Under the pieces are notes generated by a model. It had not been told where the DNA came from and did no database searches. It saw nothing but the letters and a program-made list of their open reading frames with translations. The translations under genes were made by a program, and so were the position numbers. From Candidatus Micrarchaeota archaeon (GTDB taxonomy: Archaea; Micrarchaeota; Micrarchaeia; Anstonellales; Bilamarchaeaceae), in assembly GCA_040754495.1 (NCBI GenBank), contig JBFMCO010000071.1:1-28112 (forward strand): a stretch of 28,112 nt of DNA. The letters are read 5' to 3'. How positions within the stretch are numbered: the first letter of the stretch is position 1; the number at the start of each line of letters is the position of its first letter. Below, one piece after another: positions 14,546 to 25,465 of this stretch.

Positions 14546-14890
14546 ATGGACATCCCCAAGTGCTCGCATTGCGCGATGCCGGTCGAATCCAGCAATATCC
14601 ACCTCCGGGGCATGCTCCTCAAATGCCGCTACTGCGGATATTCCGGCCTCCCGCTGAACGCAGGCGCCTGCTTCTACGATAAAATCGAGATAGAGCGGCC
14701 GGAGCCGTATGATGCATTCAGGGGAGAGTTCGGCCCCCGGTCCGTCCTCTCGCATCTGGCCCTGCTCAGCCTGTTCTCCGCGATGCTGTCGCTGTGGTGG
14801 GAATCCCTTGGCGGCCTCACCCTGGCCCTATTCTCTGGCTTCGCCCTGTTTTCCGCCCTTTACGTCTTTGCCAGGCTGAAGCGCGCATGA
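14546..14890 (+). CDS. Small Zn-ribbon membrane protein
   Basis: CSHC...CRYCGY N-terminus and 2 C-terminal TM helices. GAGGT SD; TTTAAAAA box at 14495-14502. Overlaps the convergent gene by 63 nt. Confidence 0.65.
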   Translation: MDIPKCSHCAMPVESSNIHLRGMLLKCRYCGYSGLPLNAGACFYDKIEIERPEPYDAFRGEFGPRSVLSHLALLSLFSAMLSLWWESLGGLTLALFSGFALFSALYVFARLKRA

Positions 14891-15373
14891 TGCGCATGCG
14901 CCCTCAATCCTCTGTGCGGTGAGGTAGAGCGAAGATAAGGCCACAACTGCCGTAATGACGCTTATCTCGAACCTGTGCTCCAGGAGGAAAAGCACCCCGC
15001 TGAAGCTGAGGAACGAGAACAGGGCGGAGATGCAGCTTGCGCAGGTGGCGCTCGCAAAAAGGCCGGATAACGCCCCGGATATGAATCCGGCGAACCCTAT
15101 TCCGGCGTTCTCCACGGCCTTCACGCCCCTCCTCCAGGCGTATATCTGCATGGAGAACACGATGCCCATAATGAGCGACAGGCCGGCCATGGCGGCGAGT
15201 TCAGCCGGGGGCGTAGCTGCGAAGAAGAACCCGTAGGAGTTGCCGGGCACTGAGTAGACCGGTAGCGAGACATATAGAAAAAATGAGGAAATGGAAAGAA
15301 AAAGCGCGAGCAGCAAATATCGCGCCGCGCCGAAAACCCGCCCCATCGCGGCGGGAACGTTGCCAAGCCCCAT
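14828..15373 (-). CDS. MerT-like membrane protein with intramembrane CxxC (paralog 1)
   Basis: About 4 TM helices; ASATCASC and C-terminal GACASC; 4 nt downstream of dsbA. Confidence 0.75.
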   Translation of the reverse strand: MGLGNVPAAMGRVFGAARYLLLALFLSISSFFLYVSLPVYSVPGNSYGFFFAATPPAELAAMAGLSLIMGIVFSMQIYAWRRGVKAVENAGIGFAGFISGALSGLFASATCASCISALFSFLSFSGVLFLLEHRFEISVITAVVALSSLYLTAQRIEGACASCALQPGKDVKGGKQGEARE

Positions 15374-15377
15374 AGCC

Positions 15378-16193
15378 TCACTGCAATAGCTGGTCTATGG
15401 TAGACTTGAAAACACTATACGGCTGCGCCCCGCTGATTGGCACTATGCTGCTCCCGTCCCTCTTTCCTATGAGGAATGCGGGCGTGCCCCTCACGCCTGC
15501 GGCCACGCCGTCGTCCTCATCAGCCTGCACCTCGCTCGCGTACTTGCCCGAATCGAGGCAGGTGTTGAACGCCGATGCATCAAGACCGCTTACCTGGGCT
15601 GCCCATGCCTTTATGTCGCTTACGCTGAACTGGACTGTTCCCTGGCCTTGCTTTGCCTGCTCCTGGAATATCTTGTCATGCATCTCCCATCCTTTGCCCT
15701 GCTCGTCCGCGCACTCCACGGCCTCGGCAGAAGGCTGTGCGGCAGGATGGAAGCTAAGCGGGAAATCCCGGTACACCAGCTGGACTTTTCCGGTGTCGAT
15801 GTAGTCTTTTTTTATGCTGGGGAAGCTGCTCTCGAAGAAGCTCCTGCAGAAGGGGCACTGGAAATCCGAGAATTCCACGATGACGACTGGGGCGCTGTCC
15901 GAGCCGAGCTTCATGTCGTCGTCCATGAGGTCCTTGATGTCGCCGGCATTGCCGGCAGCCGCCGTGCCTCCGCTGCCCGCAGCCGCGGAGGGTTGCGTGC
16001 CGCCAGAAGGCTGGGTTGCGCCGGAAGGCTGCGATGGCTGGGCCGCTGGTGCGCCTGCCTGCTGTGCTGGAGCCTTCACGATGCCGAATCCCTGCGTGAA
16101 AATAGAAAGCATGAGCAGGGCCGCCAGGCCGACAATTAAGATGCCGTAGAGCGTATCCTTTCCGATAGTTATGCTGTCTTTTCCATCCGACAT
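15378..16193 (-). CDS. Membrane-anchored DsbA-family thioredoxin-fold protein
   Basis: VVIVEFSDFQCPFC active site, YRDFPLSFHP, cis-Pro loop GVRGTPAF, N-terminal TM and QPSG-rich linker. Confidence 0.92.
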   Translation of the reverse strand: MSDGKDSITIGKDTLYGILIVGLAALLMLSIFTQGFGIVKAPAQQAGAPAAQPSQPSGATQPSGGTQPSAAAGSGGTAAAGNAGDIKDLMDDDMKLGSDSAPVVIVEFSDFQCPFCRSFFESSFPSIKKDYIDTGKVQLVYRDFPLSFHPAAQPSAEAVECADEQGKGWEMHDKIFQEQAKQGQGTVQFSVSDIKAWAAQVSGLDASAFNTCLDSGKYASEVQADEDDGVAAGVRGTPAFLIGKRDGSSIVPISGAQPYSVFKSTIDQLLQ

Positions 16194-16204
16194 ATTCACA
16201 CCTT

Positions 16205-16245
16205 ATGTAATGTTAATGTAACCTTAATGTAATAACCTTTATAAA
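16205..16245. promoter_or_regulatory. Divergent promoter: three ATGTAA boxes at 11-bp period plus palindromic TATA (TTTATAAA)
   Basis: ATGTAA at 16205-10, 16216-21 and 16227-32; TTTATAAA at 16238-45. Confidence 0.65.
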
Positions 16246-16276
16246 CCTGCTCCCGACCATTCCTACAGGTGAAATA

Positions 16277-16591
16277 ATGATAACTGAAATCTCCGGGCTT
16301 CTCGACGTACTTCATCTGGCCGCAGGTGTCGGGTTCCTTGCGGCGGTCGCGTTCGCGCTCAAGCTCTATCTGGAGACGGATAAGGGCTGGTACTGGCTCT
16401 CCCTTGTCCTGTCAGCGGTGTTTTTCGCGCTCGCGCACTGGAGCTCTATTATCTTCCCAATCAGCCTTGAGAACTTCGAGTTCCTGGCAATAATCCAGGA
16501 GACGAGCGAGATAGTCGCCAGCATTCTCCTCTCAGTCTCGTGCTACGGCATCTACAAAACCATGAAGGAAATCCGCAAGAGGGTAGAATGA
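16277..16591 (+). CDS. 3-TM membrane protein, candidate sensor module
   Basis: Three hydrophobic helices; AGGTGA SD; ATGA overlap with the downstream wHTH gene. Confidence 0.75.
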   Translation: MITEISGLLDVLHLAAGVGFLAAVAFALKLYLETDKGWYWLSLVLSAVFFALAHWSSIIFPISLENFEFLAIIQETSEIVASILLSVSCYGIYKTMKEIRKRVE

Positions 16592-16854
16592 AGACCATTC
16601 TTTTCTACTGGAGCAAGGGCTCCGACACGCGCAGGAAGCTGGTGCGGGCGATTGCCGAGTGCGAACGCCATGGGGAAGCCTGCTACCTGAACTCACTTGC
16701 GGAAAAGATGGGCCTCAGCCATGTAGCGGTAAAAAAACACATGGCTCTTCTCGTTGATGAAGGGTATGTGAAGGTGCTGAACCCCGGCGGCAAGCCCATC
16801 TACCTCGCCCTTACTGACAAGGGCATTGAGGTGCTGAAGGAGTTCTCCGCCTGA
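16588..16854 (+). CDS. ArsR-like winged-helix transcriptional regulator
   Basis: KGSDTRRKLVRAI...YLNSLAEKMGLSHVAVKKHMALLVDEGYV...LTDKG. Confidence 0.85.
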   Translation: MKTILFYWSKGSDTRRKLVRAIAECERHGEACYLNSLAEKMGLSHVAVKKHMALLVDEGYVKVLNPGGKPIYLALTDKGIEVLKEFSA

Positions 16855-16873
16855 GCGCCTGATGCCGGCTAGC

Positions 16874-17305
16874 TCAGCATGCTTTCCCATCGAGCTTCTG
16901 GACGATGGCGAGCGCAAGGGCCGCTATCGATACCACGCCCAGAAGGGGGCGCAGCGGGTCGAACCATTCGAAGAGGGCAGCATACCCGAGGAGCATCACG
17001 AGGAGCTTGTTGCATATTGGGCATGCGAAGGCAAGCAGGCCGAAGAAGGTGCCCCCGGCTGCCTTGCCATCCGCCGCGCAGGCATTGGTCGGAAGCGCAA
17101 GATACGCCCCTCCCAAAAGAGCGGTCGTGGCCAGGAAGAAGAAGTCCAGGGGCGAGGCCGGCATCATCCTCATGAAGATGGGGTTCGGTATCGTTGCCGT
17201 CACAAGGCCGAATAGCGCCAGGATGCCGATTGAATAAAGCAGCAGTCTAATCATCGTCCGCGCTTCGGAGAATGCGGCCGCGGCTTTCTGGAGTATGCGT
17301 TGCAT
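16874..17305 (-). CDS. MerT-like membrane protein with intramembrane CPIC (paralog 2)
   Basis: IPNPIFMRM, LLAFACPICNKLLVMLLG, DPLRPLL, C-terminal KAC. The start could be 17254. Confidence 0.75.
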   Translation of the reverse strand: MQRILQKAAAAFSEARTMIRLLLYSIGILALFGLVTATIPNPIFMRMMPASPLDFFFLATTALLGGAYLALPTNACAADGKAAGGTFFGLLAFACPICNKLLVMLLGYAALFEWFDPLRPLLGVVSIAALALAIVQKLDGKAC

Positions 17306-17311
17306 CCCTGC

Positions 17312-17590
17312 TCACCGTTCCTCGAACCGGATTTCTTTGCCGCCTATCCTGCCGGGCATGGCGCTGAATGCTATCCTTCCTTTTTTCTCCGCCGCCCCGG
17401 CCTTCCGCCTCTCTCCGAGGTACTCCACCAGATATGGCCCGAAAGTGAGCAGCAGCATGGCGGCAACGGCCGGAACGAAAAATGGCGATGCGGCCATGAA
17501 CGACCCTGCTCCCCCCAGCAGCATTAGCACCAGCACAAGTACCACCAGGTCCTGCTTCAGGCGCTGCTTAAGAGGCTTTTTGGCTTCCAT
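17312..17590 (-). CDS. Small 2-TM hypothetical protein
   Basis: GAGGTG SD before the ATG at 17590; two hydrophobic helices; operon-packed. Confidence 0.6.
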   Translation of the reverse strand: MEAKKPLKQRLKQDLVVLVLVLMLLGGAGSFMAASPFFVPAVAAMLLLTFGPYLVEYLGERRKAGAAEKKGRIAFSAMPGRIGGKEIRFEER

Positions 17591-18281
17591 TGCCGCCACC
17601 TCCGCTTTCAAGCGCGTTCAGCATCGGGACTGTGAACATCCCGGCTGCGATTCCTGCGATTGCCCCGGTTATCCACCTTATTGTATTGGTGCTTTCCTGC
17701 AGGCCGAAAGGATTCAGCCAGTAGAAAGAGGGATTGTCGAAAATGCCAGCGAGCATCTGCGTCGTGCCGTCAATCGCCAGCGGCAGCAGCCCCAGAACAA
17801 GCCAGAGAACGTGCGGGACCTTCGTCTGCTTCAGCCCGAACACAATGGGATACGCCATCATCGTAAGCATCCAGGGTATGTATATCGCGTAATCCCTGGT
17901 GTCGTTCGCGAACTTGTAGCCCGTCATCCCGTTCCTCACGACCCTCTCCGCCTTGTTCCTCCCTATCTGGTCCTGCTTGTATTCGGCGAATATGCCGTTA
18001 TAGCGCGGGTCGCCATCGCCCGTATAGAGCGTGCTTATGTTTGCTTCCGCTTCCCGGCCGCGGACTATGCAATCCTCTATGCCGAGGCTGCCGCTGGCAT
18101 CCTTGAAGACGCATTGCGAGCGGTAAATCCACTGGTGGTCATACGAGTGCACGTTATAGAGGAACGCCCCGGCCTCCTCGAAACCCGCGAATATGAGGAA
18201 CGGCGGGGCGAGTATCGAGAGGTTGAGAATGAGAAAAAAACCCACGACCAGATAATAAACCGGCGAAGAGGGCAGGGCCAT
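17568..18281 (-). CDS. DUF2085-like membrane protein
   Basis: DHQWIYRS (compare CHQxxxRS), LLPLAIDGTTQ, STNTIRWITGAIAG. Confidence 0.75.
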   Translation of the reverse strand: MALPSSPVYYLVVGFFLILNLSILAPPFLIFAGFEEAGAFLYNVHSYDHQWIYRSQCVFKDASGSLGIEDCIVRGREAEANISTLYTGDGDPRYNGIFAEYKQDQIGRNKAERVVRNGMTGYKFANDTRDYAIYIPWMLTMMAYPIVFGLKQTKVPHVLWLVLGLLPLAIDGTTQMLAGIFDNPSFYWLNPFGLQESTNTIRWITGAIAGIAAGMFTVPMLNALESGGGGNGSQKAS

Positions 18282-19901
18282 CTAATCCACCTCGAAGCTC
18301 GTCATCATGCCGGAGCCAAGATGCTCCGCGATGTGGCAGTGCATCATCCATTCCCCTTCGTTAGGGAAGTATGTGAGCAGCTCGGCAGTTTTCCCGGACG
18401 GTATGTTCACCGTGTCCTTCCACACCAGATTCCCGTTCTTCTGGCCGTCCATGCTGAGCACGAGGAACTGCGCCCCGTGCAGGTGGAGCGCGTGCTGCAT
18501 CGGATGGGCTGAATTCCCGTCGTTCTCAATCCTTATCTTCACGACCTTGCCTTTCGGTATGGCCGCCGCTGCATCCATGTTTTTCTTGCCGCTCATCCTG
18601 TCCTTTATGACCCAGGTTGTCCTGTTGCTTGTGGAGAAGCTGTTCATGGCGAACATCGTGTCCTCCCACTCAATCCCTTCTTCGATGTGGGCCATCATGT
18701 CCCCCATCCCTCCGCTTTCCATGCCCATTCCCTCAATGTCTACCGTGAGGACATAGTCGAAATCCGCCGGATTGTCGAAATATTCCTCATAAGCGCCGAT
18801 TTCCGAGATTATGTCGCTGTTATTCTTGAGAGCATAGAACCCCCCTTCACCCTCTCCATCCCCGCCCGATTCTTTCACGACTACTCTGCCCAGCGTCTGC
18901 TCGCCGAGCGGGTTCCTGTTTTTGATGGCGTATGTGCTAGGCTTGTCGAATTCAACCTCGACGATGAGCCTTTCCGAAGGCGAAATGATGACGGAATCAG
19001 CTAAATACTCCCTCTCCGCCTTCCCGCCGTCGCCTCCCACCACCTTCATGCGCATCCCATCTATCGAAAGATTGAACGTGCGGACGTTCGCCGCATCCAG
19101 TATGAAAAACCTCACTCTCTCCCCGTTCTCAACTTCGAGGGAGTAATCTGTCCTGCCATTCACGAGCATGACGTTGCCGAACCTTCCCATCAGGGCGAAA
19201 TTGGTTTCGTTGCTGTCGAATGGATAGACGTCCCCGCCGGATAGCAGGATGTCGTCCAGGGCAAGCACCTCCTCCCGGTCGACTGCATTGTAATATCCGC
19301 TTTCGTTTGGCTCCACCAGGATGAATCCGTACAGGCCAAGCTCCTGCTGGAGGTCCTCCCTCACATGCGGATGGTACCAGTACGCGCCTTCATCAGGGAA
19401 CTCCAGCCGGTAAAGGAAGCTTTCTCCGGGCATTACGGCCCGCTGCGTGACATCCGGAACGCCGTCGTACCTGTTCTGCAGCCTGAGCCCGTGCCAATGG
19501 ACGGTCGTGTTTGAGTCCAGCGAGTTGGTGAAATTGACGAAAACCGTGCTTCCCTGCCTCACACGGATGACTGGTCCCGGGATTTGGCCGTTATAAGCGA
19601 ATGCCCGTATCATCTTCCCGTCTATCTCCTTGGCAACCGGCCCGGCTTCGAGCGCGAAGACCGAGCCGTTCTCAAGCTCGTAAACCCCCTGCCCCGCTGC
19701 GGCCTCCAGACCGGTCGTATCCCTGTTTATCGGCTCGAAATCCCGGCCGCCCATCATGCCGCCGGCCATGCCGTTTCCTGCACCCGGCATCCCTCCCCCC
19801 GAGGCCAGCCCTGCGCCTCCCATCATCCCGCTTCTCTGTTGCGCTGAGCATCCGGCGGAAATAATTGTGGCCAGTAAAACAATCGCGAAAACGCCTCTCA
19901 T
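18282..19901 (-). CDS. Secreted three-domain multicopper oxidase (CueO/laccase-like), Met-rich
   Basis: Cu motifs TVHWHG, YWYHPH, HALHLHG, MHCHIAEHLGSGMM; signal peptide ending ISAGC; GGMMGG-rich N-terminus. Confidence 0.95.
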   Translation of the reverse strand: MRGVFAIVLLATIISAGCSAQQRSGMMGGAGLASGGGMPGAGNGMAGGMMGGRDFEPINRDTTGLEAAAGQGVYELENGSVFALEAGPVAKEIDGKMIRAFAYNGQIPGPVIRVRQGSTVFVNFTNSLDSNTTVHWHGLRLQNRYDGVPDVTQRAVMPGESFLYRLEFPDEGAYWYHPHVREDLQQELGLYGFILVEPNESGYYNAVDREEVLALDDILLSGGDVYPFDSNETNFALMGRFGNVMLVNGRTDYSLEVENGERVRFFILDAANVRTFNLSIDGMRMKVVGGDGGKAEREYLADSVIISPSERLIVEVEFDKPSTYAIKNRNPLGEQTLGRVVVKESGGDGEGEGGFYALKNNSDIISEIGAYEEYFDNPADFDYVLTVDIEGMGMESGGMGDMMAHIEEGIEWEDTMFAMNSFSTSNRTTWVIKDRMSGKKNMDAAAAIPKGKVVKIRIENDGNSAHPMQHALHLHGAQFLVLSMDGQKNGNLVWKDTVNIPSGKTAELLTYFPNEGEWMMHCHIAEHLGSGMMTSFEVD

Positions 19902-19905
19902 CTCA

Positions 19906-20355
19906 TCACTCGTACCTTATCTCGATAACGTCTCCGTCCGCCATCACATAATGCTCGAAATCGCCGTTTTCCCTTCCGTTGACGAGCATCTTCACGCCCT
20001 TTCCGCCCGCATTGCAGTAGTCGAAGACGCACTCGCTGTTGAATCTCTCCCCCCACACCTCGTTCATGAAATAGCCGACCGTCAGCTGGTTCTTGGGTAT
20101 GGTGGCCTGGCTGAACTCGAAATGCACAGTCCCATCGCCCTCCTCATGGGTGTGCACCGGGAGATGGCGCCCGCCGCCAAGGCCGAGGTTGTCCGGAACC
20201 CCGACCTCTTTCCCATCGATAAAAATGGCGATTCTGGAGTGCCAGTGCAGCGGCCCGCCGACCGAGCCCTCGGCATACGCGTTCCTGCTCCCAAGAAGGA
20301 GGTACGCGGACACGGCGAGCGCAAGGAGGATGAATGCGTATACGTATCCTTTCAT
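19906..20355 (-). CDS. Membrane-anchored His-motif protein (HWH...HTH...H)
   Basis: N-terminal TM; GPLHWHS, PVHTHEEGDGTVHFE, CVFDYC; operon-packed between copA and the oxidase. Confidence 0.75.
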   Translation of the reverse strand: MKGYVYAFILLALAVSAYLLLGSRNAYAEGSVGGPLHWHSRIAIFIDGKEVGVPDNLGLGGGRHLPVHTHEEGDGTVHFEFSQATIPKNQLTVGYFMNEVWGERFNSECVFDYCNAGGKGVKMLVNGRENGDFEHYVMADGDVIEIRYE

Positions 20356-20358
20356 AGC

Positions 20359-22818
20359 TCACAACCTCGGCTTCCAGCCTCTCATCAGCAGGCTGTTCGA
20401 GACCACGCTCACCGAGCTGAACGCCATCGCAGCTCCTGCTATCACCGGACTTAGCAGGAAACCTGAGACCGGGAACAGGATGCCCATGGCAACCGGTATT
20501 CCTACAGTGTTGTATAGGAAGGCCCAGAAGAGGTTCTCCTTGATTTTCCTCATGGTATACCTGCTGAGCTGTATGGCGGATACGATGTCGCGCAGGTCGC
20601 TTTTCACCAGGACTATGCCCCCGCTCTCGATGGCCACGTCAGTACCGGCGCCAATCGCTATCCCCACATCCGCCTGCGCCAGTGCAGGAGCGTCATTTAT
20701 GCCATCGCCGACGAACGCCACCTTGCTGCCTTCGTCCTGGAGCCTCTTCACCTCGTTGGCCTTGTCCTCCGGCATCACGTGCGCTAGCACCCGGTCGATG
20801 CCAGCCTGCTTCGCTATCGCCTGCGCGGTCCTCTCGTTGTCGCCGGTTATCATGGCAGTCTCATAGCCCATTTTGTGGAGCCTGTCGACGGCTTCTCTCG
20901 AATGCTCTTTTATGGTGTCCGCTATCGCTATGAGCCCGGCTATCCTATCCTCCGCAGCGACTATCACGACCGTCTTGCCCTCTTTCTCGAGCCCGTGCAT
21001 CCTCTTTATAGCCCTGTCATCGACTTTCACGCCTTCCTTCTGCATCAGTGCCACGTTGCCGACAAGCACCCTCACGTTGCCGAAGACGGCGGATATGCCG
21101 TGGCCCGGAATCGCCTTGAAATCCCCGGGCTCCCCTATCCGGAGTTTCCTCTCCTTCGCCTTTTTCACGACCGCCTGGGCAAGATGGTGCTCGGAGTTGT
21201 TCTCCGCAGAGGCGGCTATCCGGAGGAGCTCATCATCCTTCATCCCGAAGGCAATCATCTCGGTGACGATCGCCTCCCCTTTTGTTATGGTGCCAGTTTT
21301 GTCGAACACCACTATCTTCACCTGATGCAGGAGCTCAAGCGCCTCGGCATTCTTTATAAGGATGCCGTTCTCGGCTCCCTTGCCCGTCCCTATCATGACG
21401 GCTGTGGGCGTGGCGAGGCCCATCGCGCACGGGCATGCGATGATAAGGGTCGATACGAGGATGGTAAGGGCAAAGAGGAATATCTGGCCCGCAAGGAAAT
21501 ACCAGTATACGAACGCCGCCAGGGCGAGGATTATTACGCCCTGAACGAAATAGCCGGCCACGGTATCCACAAGGCGCTGAATCGGAGCCTTGCTGCCCTG
21601 CGCGTCCTCGACCAGCTTTATTATCTGGGCGAGCATGGTGTCGCTCCCTACCTTGGTGGCCCTGAACCTGAAAGAGCCCGTCTTGTTTATGGTCGCTCCG
21701 ATGACAATGTCCCCCTTGGTCTTATGCACCGGCAGGCTCTCCCCGGTTATCATGCTCTCATCGACGCTGCTGGCTCCATCAGCGACCACGCCGTCCACAG
21801 GAATCTTGTCCCCGGGCTTGACGATGATTATGTCGCCAACCACGACGTCCTTTATGGGTATCTCCATCTCCTTCCCGTCCCTTATGACCAGGGCGGTCTT
21901 GGGCTGAAGCCCTATCAGCCGTTTTATCGCCTCGGAAGTCTTCCCCTTGGCCACCGCCTCCAGGTACTTGCCGAGGACTATGAACGTCAGGAGGAGGGCC
22001 GCGGTCTCGTAGTATATGCTTCCCTCGATGAACCCGAAACCCACCAGAACGCTGTACGCATAAGCGGTCCCCACGCCAAGAGCCACCAGGCTGTCCATGC
22101 CCGGCATGCGGTTGAGCAGGCCCCTGAATCCGCGGGTGAAGAAATCCCTGTTCAGGTACATCACAGGGGTAGAAAGAAAGAACTGGAGCGCGGCCATGTT
22201 CTTCATGAGGAAATCAGGGTATTCGAGCGCGACGATGCCCTTGAGCATCTCCGGCAGCGCGAGGAGGAGGACCGGGACGGTGAGGAGCGCGGACCAGAGC
22301 ACCCTGCCTTTCAGCTCCTTCACCTCTTTTTCCCGGGCGAGCTTCTCCTTGTCTATCTCCTCGCCGAGCTCCATCAGCTCTGCGTCGTATCCCGCGTCCA
22401 CGATGGCTTTCCTGATGCGGGTGAAACCGGTTTTCCCCTTGTCATATTCTATGACGGCCTTCTCCAGGCCGAAATTCAGCTCGAACTTCTCCACTCCCGG
22501 AGCCTTCCTGAGCGCCTTCTCCACTATCCCGGCGCAGTGCAGGGAGTCCATGCCTATGACATGGAGGTACATCCTGTCCTTCCCTTTCTTCGGAGCCTCC
22601 TCCCCGATGTCCGCCCCGTAGCCAAGGCCTTCTATGGACTCCTTGAAATTACCCGGCCCGACTTTGGCTTCATCGTACTCGACGGTGGCCCTGCTGGTCG
22701 CGTAATTGACGTTCGCGCTCCGGACGCCATCGAGCTTCTTGAGCCTCCTCTCTATGTTGAGGGCGCAGGATGCGCAGTGCATCCCGCTTACCGGGATAGT
22801 CATCTTCATCATCATCAC
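20359..22818 (-). CDS. copA: Cu(I)-translocating P1B-1 ATPase with two N-terminal HMA domains
   Basis: [42 protein letters not shown] and MAFSSVSV (Cu+ ligand signature). Confidence 0.96.
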
Positions 22819-23745
22819 CTACGGATATACCAGGATGCCCTTGGGCCCATAAACCATCATCAGGGAAAGCGCTATGGCGAACGCGGCGCATGTTGCGGCG
22901 AACCCGGCGAAGCGGGTGCTGAATGCCTCCTTCGGGGCCGCCCCGCTCTCCCTGTACATCATGTAGCTGAGCCCGCCGAGGACGAAAGCGCATATCCCGA
23001 ACAGGATATACAGGAACAGCACCAGGTTCTCCCGCAGCATCATCACCGAGGTCATTGCCCCCATGATGCCGGCCATCAGGCCCGCCATCACTCCTTCCAT
23101 AGTGCCCATGACGCCGCAGCACCTGCCGAGGTTGCCGCCAAGGGCGATGCCGGCGGCCATCCCTACCGTGGAGCCTATGAACATGCCGTTCGTAGCGCCT
23201 ATCAGCGCCCCGACCATGAAGCCGCTTATCATGCCCATGGTCATGCCGACCATCATGCCGTTGTTGCAGGATATCCCTTTGCCGTAGCTGCTCATGTGCA
23301 GGTACGAGAATACCGTCATGACGGAGGTCAGGATGGCCAGGGCAAGGAGGGGCATGTACGCCCCGAGCGATGATACCGAAGGGAGCGCCGCGGCGTATCC
23401 AAGGCCGCCCAGTACTACAAGGGCCGCGGTGGAGCCAAGGGCGTAATTCACGAGCTTCGATTCCACCTCGACATGCGGCTCTCCGGCTATGATGGACGAA
23501 AGGTACGTCTTCACCCTTGCCGGGTCCCCCCGCTGGCCGGCATCGCCTGCCTTTTCATTGAATCCTTTCTCGGCAAGCTGCCTCCTCAGCGTCTCGAGGG
23601 TGCCTTCCTCGCAGGAAAGCGCAACAACGCCGCTCTTCGCGTCTATCTCTTTGACTTTGGCGCCGTTCTGCTCGGCCACCCTCTCGATGAGCTTCTCGCA
23701 CGAGCCGCATGTCATGCCGTTCAGCCGGAGCGTGTAATCATTCAC
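22819..23745 (-). CDS. HMA domain fused to a Met/Gly-rich ~7-TM domain
   Basis: GMTCGSC N-terminus; TMs GMMVGMTMGMISGFM and CCGVMGTMEGVMAGLMAGIMGAMTSVMM; stop abuts the copA start. Confidence 0.82.
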   Translation of the reverse strand: MNDYTLRLNGMTCGSCEKLIERVAEQNGAKVKEIDAKSGVVALSCEEGTLETLRRQLAEKGFNEKAGDAGQRGDPARVKTYLSSIIAGEPHVEVESKLVNYALGSTAALVVLGGLGYAAALPSVSSLGAYMPLLALAILTSVMTVFSYLHMSSYGKGISCNNGMMVGMTMGMISGFMVGALIGATNGMFIGSTVGMAAGIALGGNLGRCCGVMGTMEGVMAGLMAGIMGAMTSVMMLRENLVLFLYILFGICAFVLGGLSYMMYRESGAAPKEAFSTRFAGFAATCAAFAIALSLMMVYGPKGILVYP

Positions 23746-23746
23746 C

Positions 23747-23947
23747 TCAAACCACCTTATAGCCCTCTTTCAATATAGTCTTCCTCACTTCATCGAGCAC
23801 GCGCTCGTCCCTCACGCTGACGCGCACCAATCCGCCTTTGTGATCGGCACTGACCTTCTCAACGCCATTTACCTCTGATATCGAATCCGTGAGCAGCATC
23901 TCGCAGGACCTGCAGTGCATGCCTTCAACCTTCATTGTCTTTTCCAT
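23747..23947 (-). CDS. copZ: CopZ-like copper chaperone
   Basis: 66-aa single HMA domain, KVEGMHCRSC...EGYKV. Confidence 0.88.
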   Translation of the reverse strand: MEKTMKVEGMHCRSCEMLLTDSISEVNGVEKVSADHKGGLVRVSVRDERVLDEVRKTILKEGYKVV

Positions 23948-24403
23948 CTATCTCACCTCGCACGTACCGGATGCGGCCTTCAGCGAATTGTGCAGCGAAA
24001 ACACCAGCAGCCCCAGGCTGAGAAGCCCCATATACAATCCTATGTCCGCCAGGAACGCCGTCGCCGAGCCGAGGCCGAGCCAGACCAGCCAAATCGGCTG
24101 GCAGACCGGGCAGGCGCTCGTGAAAAGCGCGGCCAGCGTCCCCAATGCGGTCGTCCCTCCGGCGGCCTTCATGGCCTCGTAGTTGTGGAGGAGCACTGCT
24201 CCGTTTAAGGCCATTAGGGATGCCACCGCGCCCATGATGGCTATCTTCGGGGCCTCTGCGGTCGGATTCAGCTCCAGCGTCCATGGTATTATTGTGGACG
24301 AGCTGACGCTAAGAAGCGGCAGGAGGATGACGAGGAGGGCGAGAAATGCCGTCCTGTACCTCCACTGCCCGAGGACAGCGGCAAGGGGCTCCAGGTAAAT
24401 CAT
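23948..24403 (-). CDS. MerT-like membrane protein with intramembrane CPVC (paralog 3)
   Basis: LAALFTSACPVCQPIWLVWLG; C-terminal GTC; 4 TM helices; ATGA overlap with the cupredoxin gene. Confidence 0.78.
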   Translation of the reverse strand: MIYLEPLAAVLGQWRYRTAFLALLVILLPLLSVSSSTIIPWTLELNPTAEAPKIAIMGAVASLMALNGAVLLHNYEAMKAAGGTTALGTLAALFTSACPVCQPIWLVWLGLGSATAFLADIGLYMGLLSLGLLVFSLHNSLKAASGTCEVR

Positions 24404-24843
24404 GCCGTCACCACGAACCTCCCCGGCGGGAACATCCTCATGCCGCAGTTGTATTCGTAGGTGCCTTCCTTATCAGGCGTGAATTCCACAACGGCCTCCT
24501 GGCCGTTCCTGGAGATGACCCTCACATCCGTTCCGTATATTACGAGCTGGGCCCCGCAGCCGGCATTTATGGCCGTGAAATGCAGCCTGACCGGGATGCC
24601 CCTCCTCACGGTTATCTCGCTCTTGTCATACCCCTGGGCTGTCGCCTTGAGGTAAACGTCCTGCACCCCGGGCACCGTGCCGGGAGCCGTATCAGCTCCG
24701 GTGGGCGGCTCCTGCGTGAGCGCCTGCGGCGTCCCGCTTCCTGCGCTGGCGCCGAAAACTATGAATCCCCCGACCGCGACGGCCAGAAGCAGGCCGGCCA
24801 GCAGGAATGCTGTCGTCTTCTGAATCTTTATCTCATTGCTCAT
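24400..24843 (-). CDS. Membrane-anchored cupredoxin-domain protein (CupA-like)
   Basis: N-terminal TM; ITVRRGIPVRLHF, GCG, FTPDKEGTYEYNCGMRM (Cys/Met ligands as in CupA). Confidence 0.85.
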   Translation of the reverse strand: MSNEIKIQKTTAFLLAGLLLAVAVGGFIVFGASAGSGTPQALTQEPPTGADTAPGTVPGVQDVYLKATAQGYDKSEITVRRGIPVRLHFTAINAGCGAQLVIYGTDVRVISRNGQEAVVEFTPDKEGTYEYNCGMRMFPPGRFVVTA

Positions 24844-24982: not shown

Positions 24983-25465
24983 ATGGACATCCGTAAGAAG
25001 ATAGTTCTTGGCCTCGTTATTGTCTCCGTATTCATCTTCCTGGTGACGGTGCTCGTATTCGCATACGCACTCTCGTCCCAAGGCCAGCCGCTCCCGGGCA
25101 TCCTCGCCCCCTTCATGGAGTTTCACATCCACTTCATGGTCCTCATGGGCTTCTTCGGCGTCTTCTCCGGCCTTGTGGTATTCAACATCCTCAACGACAC
25201 CCTAGAGAAGCAGAAGAGGCTCGTCAAGACCAATATCGGCATAATCATGAAGTTCCTCACCCCGGAAGACCGGGAGGTGGTGAGCCTGCTGATCAGCAAG
25301 GAGGGGATGACCACGCAGAGCGAAATCGCCCGGCTGCCCGGCATGAGCAGGCTGAAGGCGCACCGGATTGTCAAGAGGCTGGAGGAGCGCGGCATTATCC
25401 ACGTCGAGAAATACGGCAAGGTGAACATGGTCCGCATCGTGGAGGAGCTGAGGGGGGTGCAATGA
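24983..25465 (+). CDS. Membrane-tethered winged-helix transcriptional regulator (2 TM plus wHTH)
   Basis: Two N-terminal TMs with loop MEFHIHFM; C-terminal LTPEDREVV..LISKEGMTTQSEIARLPGMSRLKAHRIVKRLEERGII. Confidence 0.85.
   Translation: MDIRKKIVLGLVIVSVFIFLVTVLVFAYALSSQGQPLPGILAPFMEFHIHFMVLMGFFGVFSGLVVFNILNDTLEKQKRLVKTNIGIIMKFLTPEDREVVSLLISKEGMTTQSEIARLPGMSRLKAHRIVKRLEERGIIHVEKYGKVNMVRIVEELRGVQ

Follow-up and report, generated by a model that had tools for sequence, protein, structure and literature searches.

What is done by three small membrane proteins, each with a closely spaced cysteine pair inside a predicted membrane helix, that are encoded together among the copper genes of an archaeon? 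The proteins, here called p1, p2 and p3, lie on the minus strand of a 28,112-nucleotide stretch from Candidatus Micrarchaeota archaeon (JBFMCO010000071.1, positions 1 to 28,112; hereafter the window), which is contig C71 of a 72-contig, 1.63-Mb assembly (GCA_040754495.1), 80% complete. The organism is a tiny archaeon of the symbiotic type, and the closest protein relatives of the window carry the names Micrarchaeota or Candidatus Bilamarchaeum. Our analysis revealed that p1, p2 and p3 are one unnamed family of approximately 150-180-aa, four-helix membrane proteins with a buried cysteine pair, and that this family is remotely homologous to the two-helix cysteine core of the mercury transporter MerT. 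As for function, we favour a relay of Cu(I) between thiolate ligands, to which we give a little less than an even chance. A sequence-only reading of the window had located the three genes and their motifs, and both coordinates and motifs proved exact (helix and loop positions are those of the predicted topology given below; TM, transmembrane helix):

14828..15373, minus strand: p1, 181 aa, four TM; CASC in TM3 (111-114), second CASC just past TM4 (160-163), Lys-rich tail
16874..17305, minus strand: p2, 143 aa; CPIC in TM3 (95-98), DPLRP in an outer loop (116-120), extra Cys76 in a cytoplasmic loop, terminal Cys143; last gene of the cop operon
23948..24403, minus strand: p3, 151 aa; CPVC at the TM3 helix break (98-101), invariant Cys148 past TM4

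The earlier reading had also taken the three for diverged relatives of each other. In a BLASTP comparison only the p2-p3 pair was detected (E = 1e-5); profile-profile alignment with hhalign, however, linked all three over their full length with the cysteine sites in register (p1-p3, 98.3%, E = 1.6e-14; p2-p3, 97.0%, E = 1.1e-10; p1-p2, 82.9%, E = 9e-6), so that they are indeed diverged homologues. In a joint alignment of 37 sequences, the two CxxC cysteines are the only columns invariant across p1, p2 and p3. The CxxC cysteines, on whose retention in orthologues the proposal had been made to depend, are kept in each of the three families, whose orthologues span 35-87% identity: all four cysteines are invariant in the p1 family (8 sequences, 35-87% identity), CPxC and the DPLRP loop in the p2 family, where the C-terminal Cys or CxxC is variable, and C98, C101 and C148 in the p3 family (26 sequences). 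The assembly encodes no family members other than these three.

The family was proposed to be undescribed, and this stands. Scans of p1, p2 and p3 against Pfam and NCBIfam gave nothing at threshold (no Pfam match even at E<=1), no Pfam family was common to the 145 members scanned, neighbours in the ESM Atlas were all "hypothetical", and a literature search found no publication on this CxxC membrane family. A family profile search of 1.84 billion representative proteins returned 2130 clusters (50% identity) at E<=1e-3, of which 833 reach E<=1e-10. Among the 150 best matches, nearly every one has the central CxxC, with a Cys or a second CxxC some 47-49 residues further on. Members occur in DPANN archaea, Halobacteria, methanogens, Archaeoglobi and some bacteria. 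Within the phylum, 90 of 401 genomes, representing 54 of 155 genera, have a member. More than 535 loci among species-representative genomes were retrieved with just two short p2-type patterns, the hosts being many Halobacteria (often on plasmids), Archaeoglobi, Methanosarcinales, Woesearchaeota, Nanohaloarchaea, Thermomicrobia/Chloroflexia, one actinomycete and one bacterium of the candidate phyla radiation (CPR).

The MerT-like character claimed for the trio holds for the core and fails for family membership. MerT was represented by the plasmid R100 protein and four diverse plasmid MerTs (5-sequence alignment). The family profile (alignment A5) matched this alignment over 66 columns (hhalign, 92.1%, E = 6e-7), a single MerT sequence against the family profile gave 91%, and another family alignment (A4) gave 79% (E = 1.5e-5). 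The MerT TM1 pair C24/C25 aligns on the CxxC helix of the family, MerT TM2 on family TM4, the MerT EPYRP motif on the outer loop where p2 has DPLRP, and MerT C76 with the C-terminal Cys. Moreover, MerT was the sole Pfam family matched by more than 2 of the 145 members (12/145, best E = 5e-5, all sub-threshold), and p2 matched NCBIfam MerTP_fusion over residues 101-140 (E = 6e-4; 19.5 bits against a 180-bit cut-off). On these alignments we accept remote homology to the MerT core, i.e. to the Mer superfamily in a broad sense. Likeness extends to the arrangement of the site: a two-TM hairpin, predicted to run in, out, in, with a Cys pair in its first helix, a (D/E)PxRP outer loop, a cytoplasmic Cys past the second helix, and a Cys-bearing partner encoded next door (MerP in the mer systems).

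Membership of MerT proper is rejected, as scores stay below the Pfam and NCBIfam thresholds, the vicinal pair is replaced and the mer context is absent. First, PF02411 (MerT) is not matched in the genome at E<=10. Second, the TM3 position aligned to the MerT vicinal CC holds CxxC (CASC, CPIC, CPVC), although one relative (L126) carries CC as in MerT. Third, merP, merA and merR do not accompany the trio in the window, have no match above cut-off in the genome and were not seen in the sampled related loci. The picture at the MerT cytoplasmic pair C76 and C82 is mixed, with two cysteines in p1 (CxSC), one invariant Cys in p3 and variation in p2. The family further differs from MerT in that it has two extra N-terminal TM helices, lacks the third MerT helix, is mainly archaeal, and has as partners DsbA-like proteins or a CupA-like cupredoxin rather than the HMA-fold MerP, in a copper context without MerA. 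A MerC-like label was dropped, neither MerC (hhalign, 14.6%) nor MerE (1.2%) being significantly similar.

The three proteins could nevertheless import Hg(II) in the classical way, as divergent members of the MerT/MerC kind supplying a mercuric reductase whose gene lies elsewhere. The MerT-core homology speaks for this; however, the genome has no MerT and no MerA above cut-off, and all three copies lie among copper genes. The earlier observation that merA, merP and merR are absent beside the trio was borne out on a wider sample: MerA, MerR and a true MerP were found neither in the window nor in about 115 sampled related loci, and when Tn21 MerA, MerP and MerR were used as tblastn queries against all fetched loci, the matches were confined to flavoprotein paralogues and to HMA domains in CopA. 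Identity to MerA was about 33% for the best-matching of these flavoprotein paralogues, and one that was examined lacks the C-terminal Cys pair. We therefore regard mercury import as highly improbable.

Where the cysteines lie in the membrane was addressed by modelling and by charge distribution. An AlphaFold2 (AF2) model of p3, built from a 145-sequence input, had a predicted local distance difference test score of 84.6 and helices at residues 14-34, 51-80, 86-96, 101-108 and 112-144, with CPVC at the break between 86-96 and 101-108. Over the 145 members, Lys and Arg number 2.5 per sequence at the N-terminus, about 1.2 in loop 2 and 2.6 in the tail, and only 0.95 and 0.6 in loops 1 and 3, respectively. 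Taken together, these data lead to a predicted topology of four TM helices in which the N- and C-termini are both cytoplasmic and the CxxC lies in TM3 near the outer leaflet. The buried CxxC would lie about one to two turns below the outer surface, and the last Cys (or second CxxC) is predicted to be cytoplasmic, just past TM4; the outer loops carry no Cys. As modelled, this topology resembles MerT and CcdA rather than DsbB and VKOR. The suggested structural comparison with MerF gave no meaningful match: a Foldseek search of the Protein Data Bank (PDB) with two AF2 models returned nothing at E<=0.001, MerF included, the best VIA-align hit (Z = 8.6) was an unrelated helical protein, with a score no higher than the noise expected of helical bundles, and a family profile search against PDB sequences gave noise only.

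The question of cargo depends on the genes around the trio. The copper and thiol island spans 14.8-25.5 kb on the minus strand and has two transcription units. The first is a packed operon (24843 to 16874) whose genes overlap or are separated by 0-6 nt, in the order CupA-like cupredoxin, p3, CopZ, HMA-fused Met-rich membrane protein, CopA, 149-aa exported protein, multicopper oxidase, DUF2085 protein, small two-TM open reading frame (ORF) and p2. The small ORF fills the apparent 262-bp gap between the DUF2085 gene and p2, and p2 thus shares the packed operon with the oxidase. In the second unit, 4 nt separate the DsbA-like gene from p1. Two divergent regulators, winged helix-turn-helix (HTH) proteins linked to the membrane, flank both units. 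The genes other than the trio are:

24983..25465, plus strand: membrane-tethered winged-HTH regulator of the cop operon (DUF7343, HTH_24), kept as divergent neighbour in 13 related loci
24400..24843, minus strand: putative membrane-anchored CupA-like cupredoxin-fold Cu(I) chaperone; Cys96 and C133-G-M-R-M; Cupredoxin_1, E = 4e-10
23747..23947, minus strand: CopZ-type HMA copper chaperone, 66 aa, cytoplasmic
22819..23745, minus strand: HMA-fused Met/Gly-rich polytopic membrane protein (N-terminal HMA, E = 2.5e-4), directly 3' of copZ in 14 related loci
20359..22818, minus strand: Cu(I) P1B-type ATPase CopA with, by its sequence, two N-terminal HMA domains; kept in related operons
19906..20355, minus strand: 149-aa exported His-rich protein between CopA and the oxidase, without a family match
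18282..19901, minus strand: multicopper oxidase of CueO/CopA type (copper_res_A, E = 4e-49; CueO, E = 5e-48) with a lipobox-like leader
17568..18281, minus strand: DUF2085 membrane protein (E = 1e-11) with a Cys pair in a large loop
17312..17611, minus strand: small two-TM ORF of about 92-99 aa (an ATG some 20 codons in gives about 92 aa)
16277..16854, plus strand: two divergent regulatory genes that overlap, one for a 104-aa membrane protein (16277-16591) and one for an ArsR/SmtB-type winged HTH (16540-16854; HTH_metalloreg, E = 2e-5)
15378..16199, minus strand: DsbA-like thioredoxin-fold protein (Thioredoxin_4, E = 5e-31; DSBA, E = 2e-17; Rcas_1661-type thioredoxin-like lipoprotein, E = 3e-36, below cut-off)

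The regulator pair at 16277-16854 is kept beside the DsbA-like gene and p1 in related loci L016, L027 and L128.

The cupredoxin gene and p3 overlap by 4 nt, and copZ begins at the base after the p3 stop codon. The pairing of p3 with a cupredoxin, claimed in the sequence-only reading, is well supported by synteny: in a phylum sample of 29 loci, the p3-type gene lies directly downstream of a CupA-like cupredoxin gene in 18 of 19 related loci, the usual order being cupredoxin, p3, copZ, HMA-membrane protein and copA, with a divergent regulator. The identity of the cupredoxin as a redox protein was not upheld. It matches the metal-binding domain of Streptococcus pneumoniae CopA (PDB 4f2f, E = 2.4e-7) and CupA (PDB 4f2e/2mry, E = 1.6e-6), with the bridging Cys and the CGMxM site aligned. 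Since both features are conserved, the protein is, as judged from these alignments, a Cu(I) chaperone of the CupA/CopA metal-binding-domain type and not a blue-copper electron carrier. As in the CupA-CopA system of S. pneumoniae, the neighbour of p3 combines the cupredoxin fold, an N-terminal anchor and a Cys...CGMxM site with a copA operon; the present system differs in being archaeal, in having CopZ alongside, and in that CopA carries HMA rather than cupredoxin N-domains. According to a review (PMC7558416), CupA is a cytoplasmic protein with a membrane anchor that is restricted to a few streptococci. In this archaeal phylum, however, the CupA-like gene is a conserved part of cop operons (18 related loci), and CupA-type copper chaperones thus occur well outside streptococci.

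The second pairing, that of p1 with DsbA, is likewise conserved: at 6 of 8 related loci of the phylum sample, the gene immediately preceding the p1-type gene encodes a DsbA-like protein. The DsbA-like protein of the window is anchored at its N-terminus, contains a linker of low complexity, and has CPFC as its active site together with a Thr-cisPro loop. No DsbB, VKOR or DsbD had been visible to the earlier reading, which proposed that p1 may be the missing redox partner of DsbA. The absence is true of the window but not of the genome, where a standalone VKOR that has a CxxC and a Cys pair in a loop (contig C19, L004:1246-1872, plus strand), four DsbD_TM proteins of the CcdA/DsbD type on other contigs, and two further DsbA-like genes (three such proteins including the one in the window) were found. 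Given the VKOR and the CcdA/DsbD-type proteins, p1 does not fill an obvious gap, and the proposal as worded is not sustained.

It could still be argued that p1 acts as an oxidant in the manner of DsbB or VKOR, reoxidizing the adjacent DsbA-like protein and passing electrons to a quinone or another acceptor. Like DsbB and VKOR, p1 is a small four-TM protein with a CxxC that is encoded beside a DsbA-like gene, DsbB was not found in this 80%-complete genome, and VKOR is rare in this archaeal family, being present in 3 of 76 sampled genomes compared with 88 of 94 and 71 of 82 in two sister families (the VKOR tallies of this paragraph include two unpublished genomes, G198 and G029, which support no other statement). 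However, besides the VKOR already in the genome, three of the four VKOR-bearing genomes of the genus carry the CxxC family as well, and the complementary distribution sought as a check was not seen. Moreover, p1, p2 and p3 have no sequence or fold similarity to DsbB or VKOR (no Pfam match to PF02600 or PF07884), lack the outer-loop Cys pair, and have their second Cys site on the predicted cytoplasmic side. Many hosts of the family (DPANN, CPR) are not expected to make quinones. Oxidation by p1 is, in our view, very unlikely.

The partners of p2 differ between lineages. In the window and in Micrarchaeota relatives, where the p2-type gene follows the oxidase and DUF2085 genes, its proposed pairing with the multicopper oxidase is present here and in some relatives. 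It does not extend to the other lineages, where p2-type neighbours were sampled at 80 loci, mostly haloarchaeal and not phylogenetically independent: the oxidase was found in 14/80 and CopA in 9/80, while a DsbA-like gene lies within about 3.5 kb in 40-43/80, and a second, p1-like paralogue within 3.5 kb in 42/80, usually immediately upstream on the same strand. The DsbA-like gene and the p1-like paralogue occur together (both at 38 loci, neither at 36, discordant at 6). The haloarchaeal DsbA-like protein is 31% identical to that of the window, has the same CPFC and Thr-cisPro loop, and carries a twin-arginine leader, and so is exported. Haloarchaeal triad loci also hold an ArsR-type HTH with DUF7521, a TlpA-like redoxin and a CcdA-like protein; homology of the 104-aa regulator-linked membrane protein of the window to DUF7521 was not found. 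A cytoplasmic thioredoxin is encoded at 15 triad loci vs 1 singleton locus, and a flavoprotein disulfide reductase, which is not MerA, at 9 loci. A 452-aa haloarchaeal flavoprotein was considered as MerA and rejected, as its best matches are dihydrolipoyl dehydrogenase and mycothione reductase and it lacks the C-terminal CC.

This context supports the main rival to a Cu(I) relay, namely that the family relays reductant as a functional analogue of CcdA, DsbD and ScsB. Cytoplasmic thioredoxin would reduce the C-terminal Cys or CxxC, or the buried CxxC itself, and the buried CxxC would keep the Cys pair of a partner reduced under copper-catalysed oxidative stress, the clients being the CPFC of the DsbA-like protein, the two-Cys site of the CupA-like protein and the Cys pair in the DUF2085 loop. 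Such a relay accounts better for the DsbA-like, thioredoxin and redoxin genes that dominate the context (6/8 p1-type and 43/80 p2-type loci with a DsbA-like gene; co-occurrence of this gene with the second paralogue; thioredoxin, redoxin, CcdA-like and non-MerA flavoprotein disulfide reductase genes nearby), and keeping surface thiols reduced under copper stress provides a rationale. The export of the haloarchaeal orthologue, the Thr-cisPro loop and the DsbG-type best named matches of the DsbA-like protein agree with it. In addition, a bis-thiolate Cu(I) site outside the cell would have to be kept reduced, and an in-to-out layout of cysteines suits a DsbD-style cascade. The family resembles ScsB-ScsC, and CcdA/DsbD with TlpA, ResA or DsbC, in that a buried-Cys membrane protein is encoded beside a DsbA-like CxxC protein among copper-defence genes, with Cys sites arranged from the cytoplasm outward.

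On the other hand, the family has no DsbD_TM similarity (PF02683 and PF13386 not matched by p1, p2 or p3), has four TM helices rather than 6-8, and carries its CxxC on one helix, whereas DsbD and CcdA have one Cys on each of two pseudo-symmetric helices. Four CcdA/DsbD-type proteins are already encoded in the genome, no second Cys is present on the cytoplasmic side of p3 and of many p2-type members, and a CxxC buried in a four-TM protein would be hard for a folded partner to reach, unless an oligomer forms around a cavity. The haloarchaeal counts are inflated by relatedness, and we know of no Mer superfamily member that carries electrons. We consider the relay of reductant a serious possibility, if on balance not a probable one. 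It and the Cu(I) relay are not mutually exclusive: ScsC and ScsB reportedly both reduce clients and bind Cu(I).

The cargo, its direction and the physical contact between partners we infer from what is observed here, i.e. the family, its homology, cysteine conservation, predicted topology and synteny. A CxxC buried in the membrane, a Cys on the cytoplasmic side, a hairpin of the MerT type and an upstream partner with a Cys site together fit a transmembrane relay by thiolate exchange, and we tentatively prefer Cu(I) as the relayed species, in a MerT-like mechanism, with confidence that falls just short of even. Cu(I) would pass from the Cys site of the partner encoded just upstream to the buried CxxC, from there to the cytoplasmic Cys, and then to a cytoplasmic acceptor. 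For p3 the chain would run from the CupA-like chaperone through p3 to CopZ and on to CopA, clearing Cu(I) from the cell surface or membrane face into the chaperone and pump pathway. In this scheme p1 would serve the DsbA-like CPFC protein, which would act like ScsC as a Cu(I)-binding thiol protein, and p2 would serve the DUF2085/oxidase end of the operon. Cu(I) is favoured because all characterized relatives move a soft metal, because p3 sits between two Cu(I) chaperone genes, because its single invariant cytoplasmic Cys suits a metal ligand and not an intramolecular disulfide, and because outer loops without Cys offer no shuttle loop to reach a folded client. All three copies, moreover, lie inside one copper island, and the oxidase and CopA also turn up at related loci elsewhere (14/80 and 9/80, respectively).

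Several points weigh against the relay of Cu(I). First, the commonest neighbour of the family as a whole is a DsbA-like protein (43/80), so that context points to redox, as do the thioredoxin, TlpA-like redoxin, CcdA-like protein and glutathione-reductase-type flavoprotein of the haloarchaeal loci; CPxC is also a classic redox motif. Second, import of Cu(I) followed by export is not obviously of use in a cell without periplasm. Third, the charge-based orientation of the CupA-like and DsbA-like anchors is indecisive, and CupA of S. pneumoniae is cytoplasmic (PMC7558416). Finally, the similarity to MerT is limited to the two-helix hairpin, a case in which hydrophobic profiles inflate scores, and the fold searches gave no solved relative.

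A bolder form of the redox reading, which we regard as doubtful, is that the family constitutes a fourth, MerT-derived class of membrane thiol-disulfide transporters after DsbB, VKOR and DsbD/CcdA, widespread in archaea and ultra-small bacteria. Its members would pass reducing equivalents from cytoplasmic thioredoxin to dedicated extracytoplasmic clients (DsbA-like proteins, a surface-exposed CupA-like protein, DUF2085), and each of the trio would be a reductase specific to one client within a single copper-defence island.

More than 2000 clusters from DPANN, haloarchaea, methanogens and some bacteria belong to a family that has neither a name nor a model, yet is tied to DsbA-like enzymes and copper chaperones. 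If its members move Cu(I) by cysteine ligand exchange, the MerT mechanism would be extended from mercury to copper, and archaea would gain a copper route from surface to cytoplasm comparable to CopC/CopD or MerP/MerT. If they move electrons, they would be a new class of membrane thiol-disulfide oxidoreductases and would explain the upkeep of extracytoplasmic thiols in organisms with little respiratory machinery. With either cargo, orphan archaeal DsbA-like proteins acquire a testable partner, and as triad-bearing haloarchaea are genetically tractable, the question of cargo is open to experiment.

Several further arrangements were observed among relatives. At L123:720-2003 (plus strand; genome G330, contig C79), directly after the oxidase gene, a single 427-aa ORF comprises DUF2085 and a p2-type protein, a Rosetta-stone link between the two; its DUF2085 part is orthologous to the product of 17568-18281 in the window, and the large loop keeps the Cys pair. 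Contig C6 of genome G123 (L127, L128) encodes five family members, and two islands within 21 kb account for four of these. One operon there runs in the order 149-aa protein, DsbA-like protein, p1, a second CupA-like gene, oxidase and p2, so that partners are shuffled among paralogues. The 149-aa His-rich exported protein recurs beside the DsbA-like gene in relatives L118 and L128. In two relatives (L124:650-2011, minus strand, genome G045; L125:1226-2647, plus strand, genome G204) an additional TM helix comes after the family domain, and then an ectodomain of about 230 aa with a dense Cys cluster (CxxCC ... CxC), for which no match was found in Pfam, NCBIfam or the PDB. The bacterial neighbourhoods that were examined (Chloroflexi, Actinomycetes) were uninformative.

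Two other genes recur next to p2-type genes. A two-TM protein of 85-100 aa is encoded directly downstream at L057:8458-8718 (plus strand) and 23 other haloarchaeal loci; helix 1 contains a vicinal CC that is invariant, and a Cys is present at the C-terminal end. In its 87-aa form the protein was considered as MerF-like from its design, a label that was dropped for want of detectable homology to MerT or to the CxxC family. Finally, a class I S-adenosylmethionine methyltransferase of about 200 aa is encoded in 17 of the 80 loci, and its gene overlaps the p2-type gene or lies directly behind it in Woesearchaeota, a CPR bacterium and Methanosarcinales (L082:5204-5845, L100:2319-2972, L113:609-1238, L097:8628-9224). 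It is of a generic UbiE/ArsM-like type, matched below threshold, and is frequent after p2-type genes of DPANN, CPR bacteria and methanogens.

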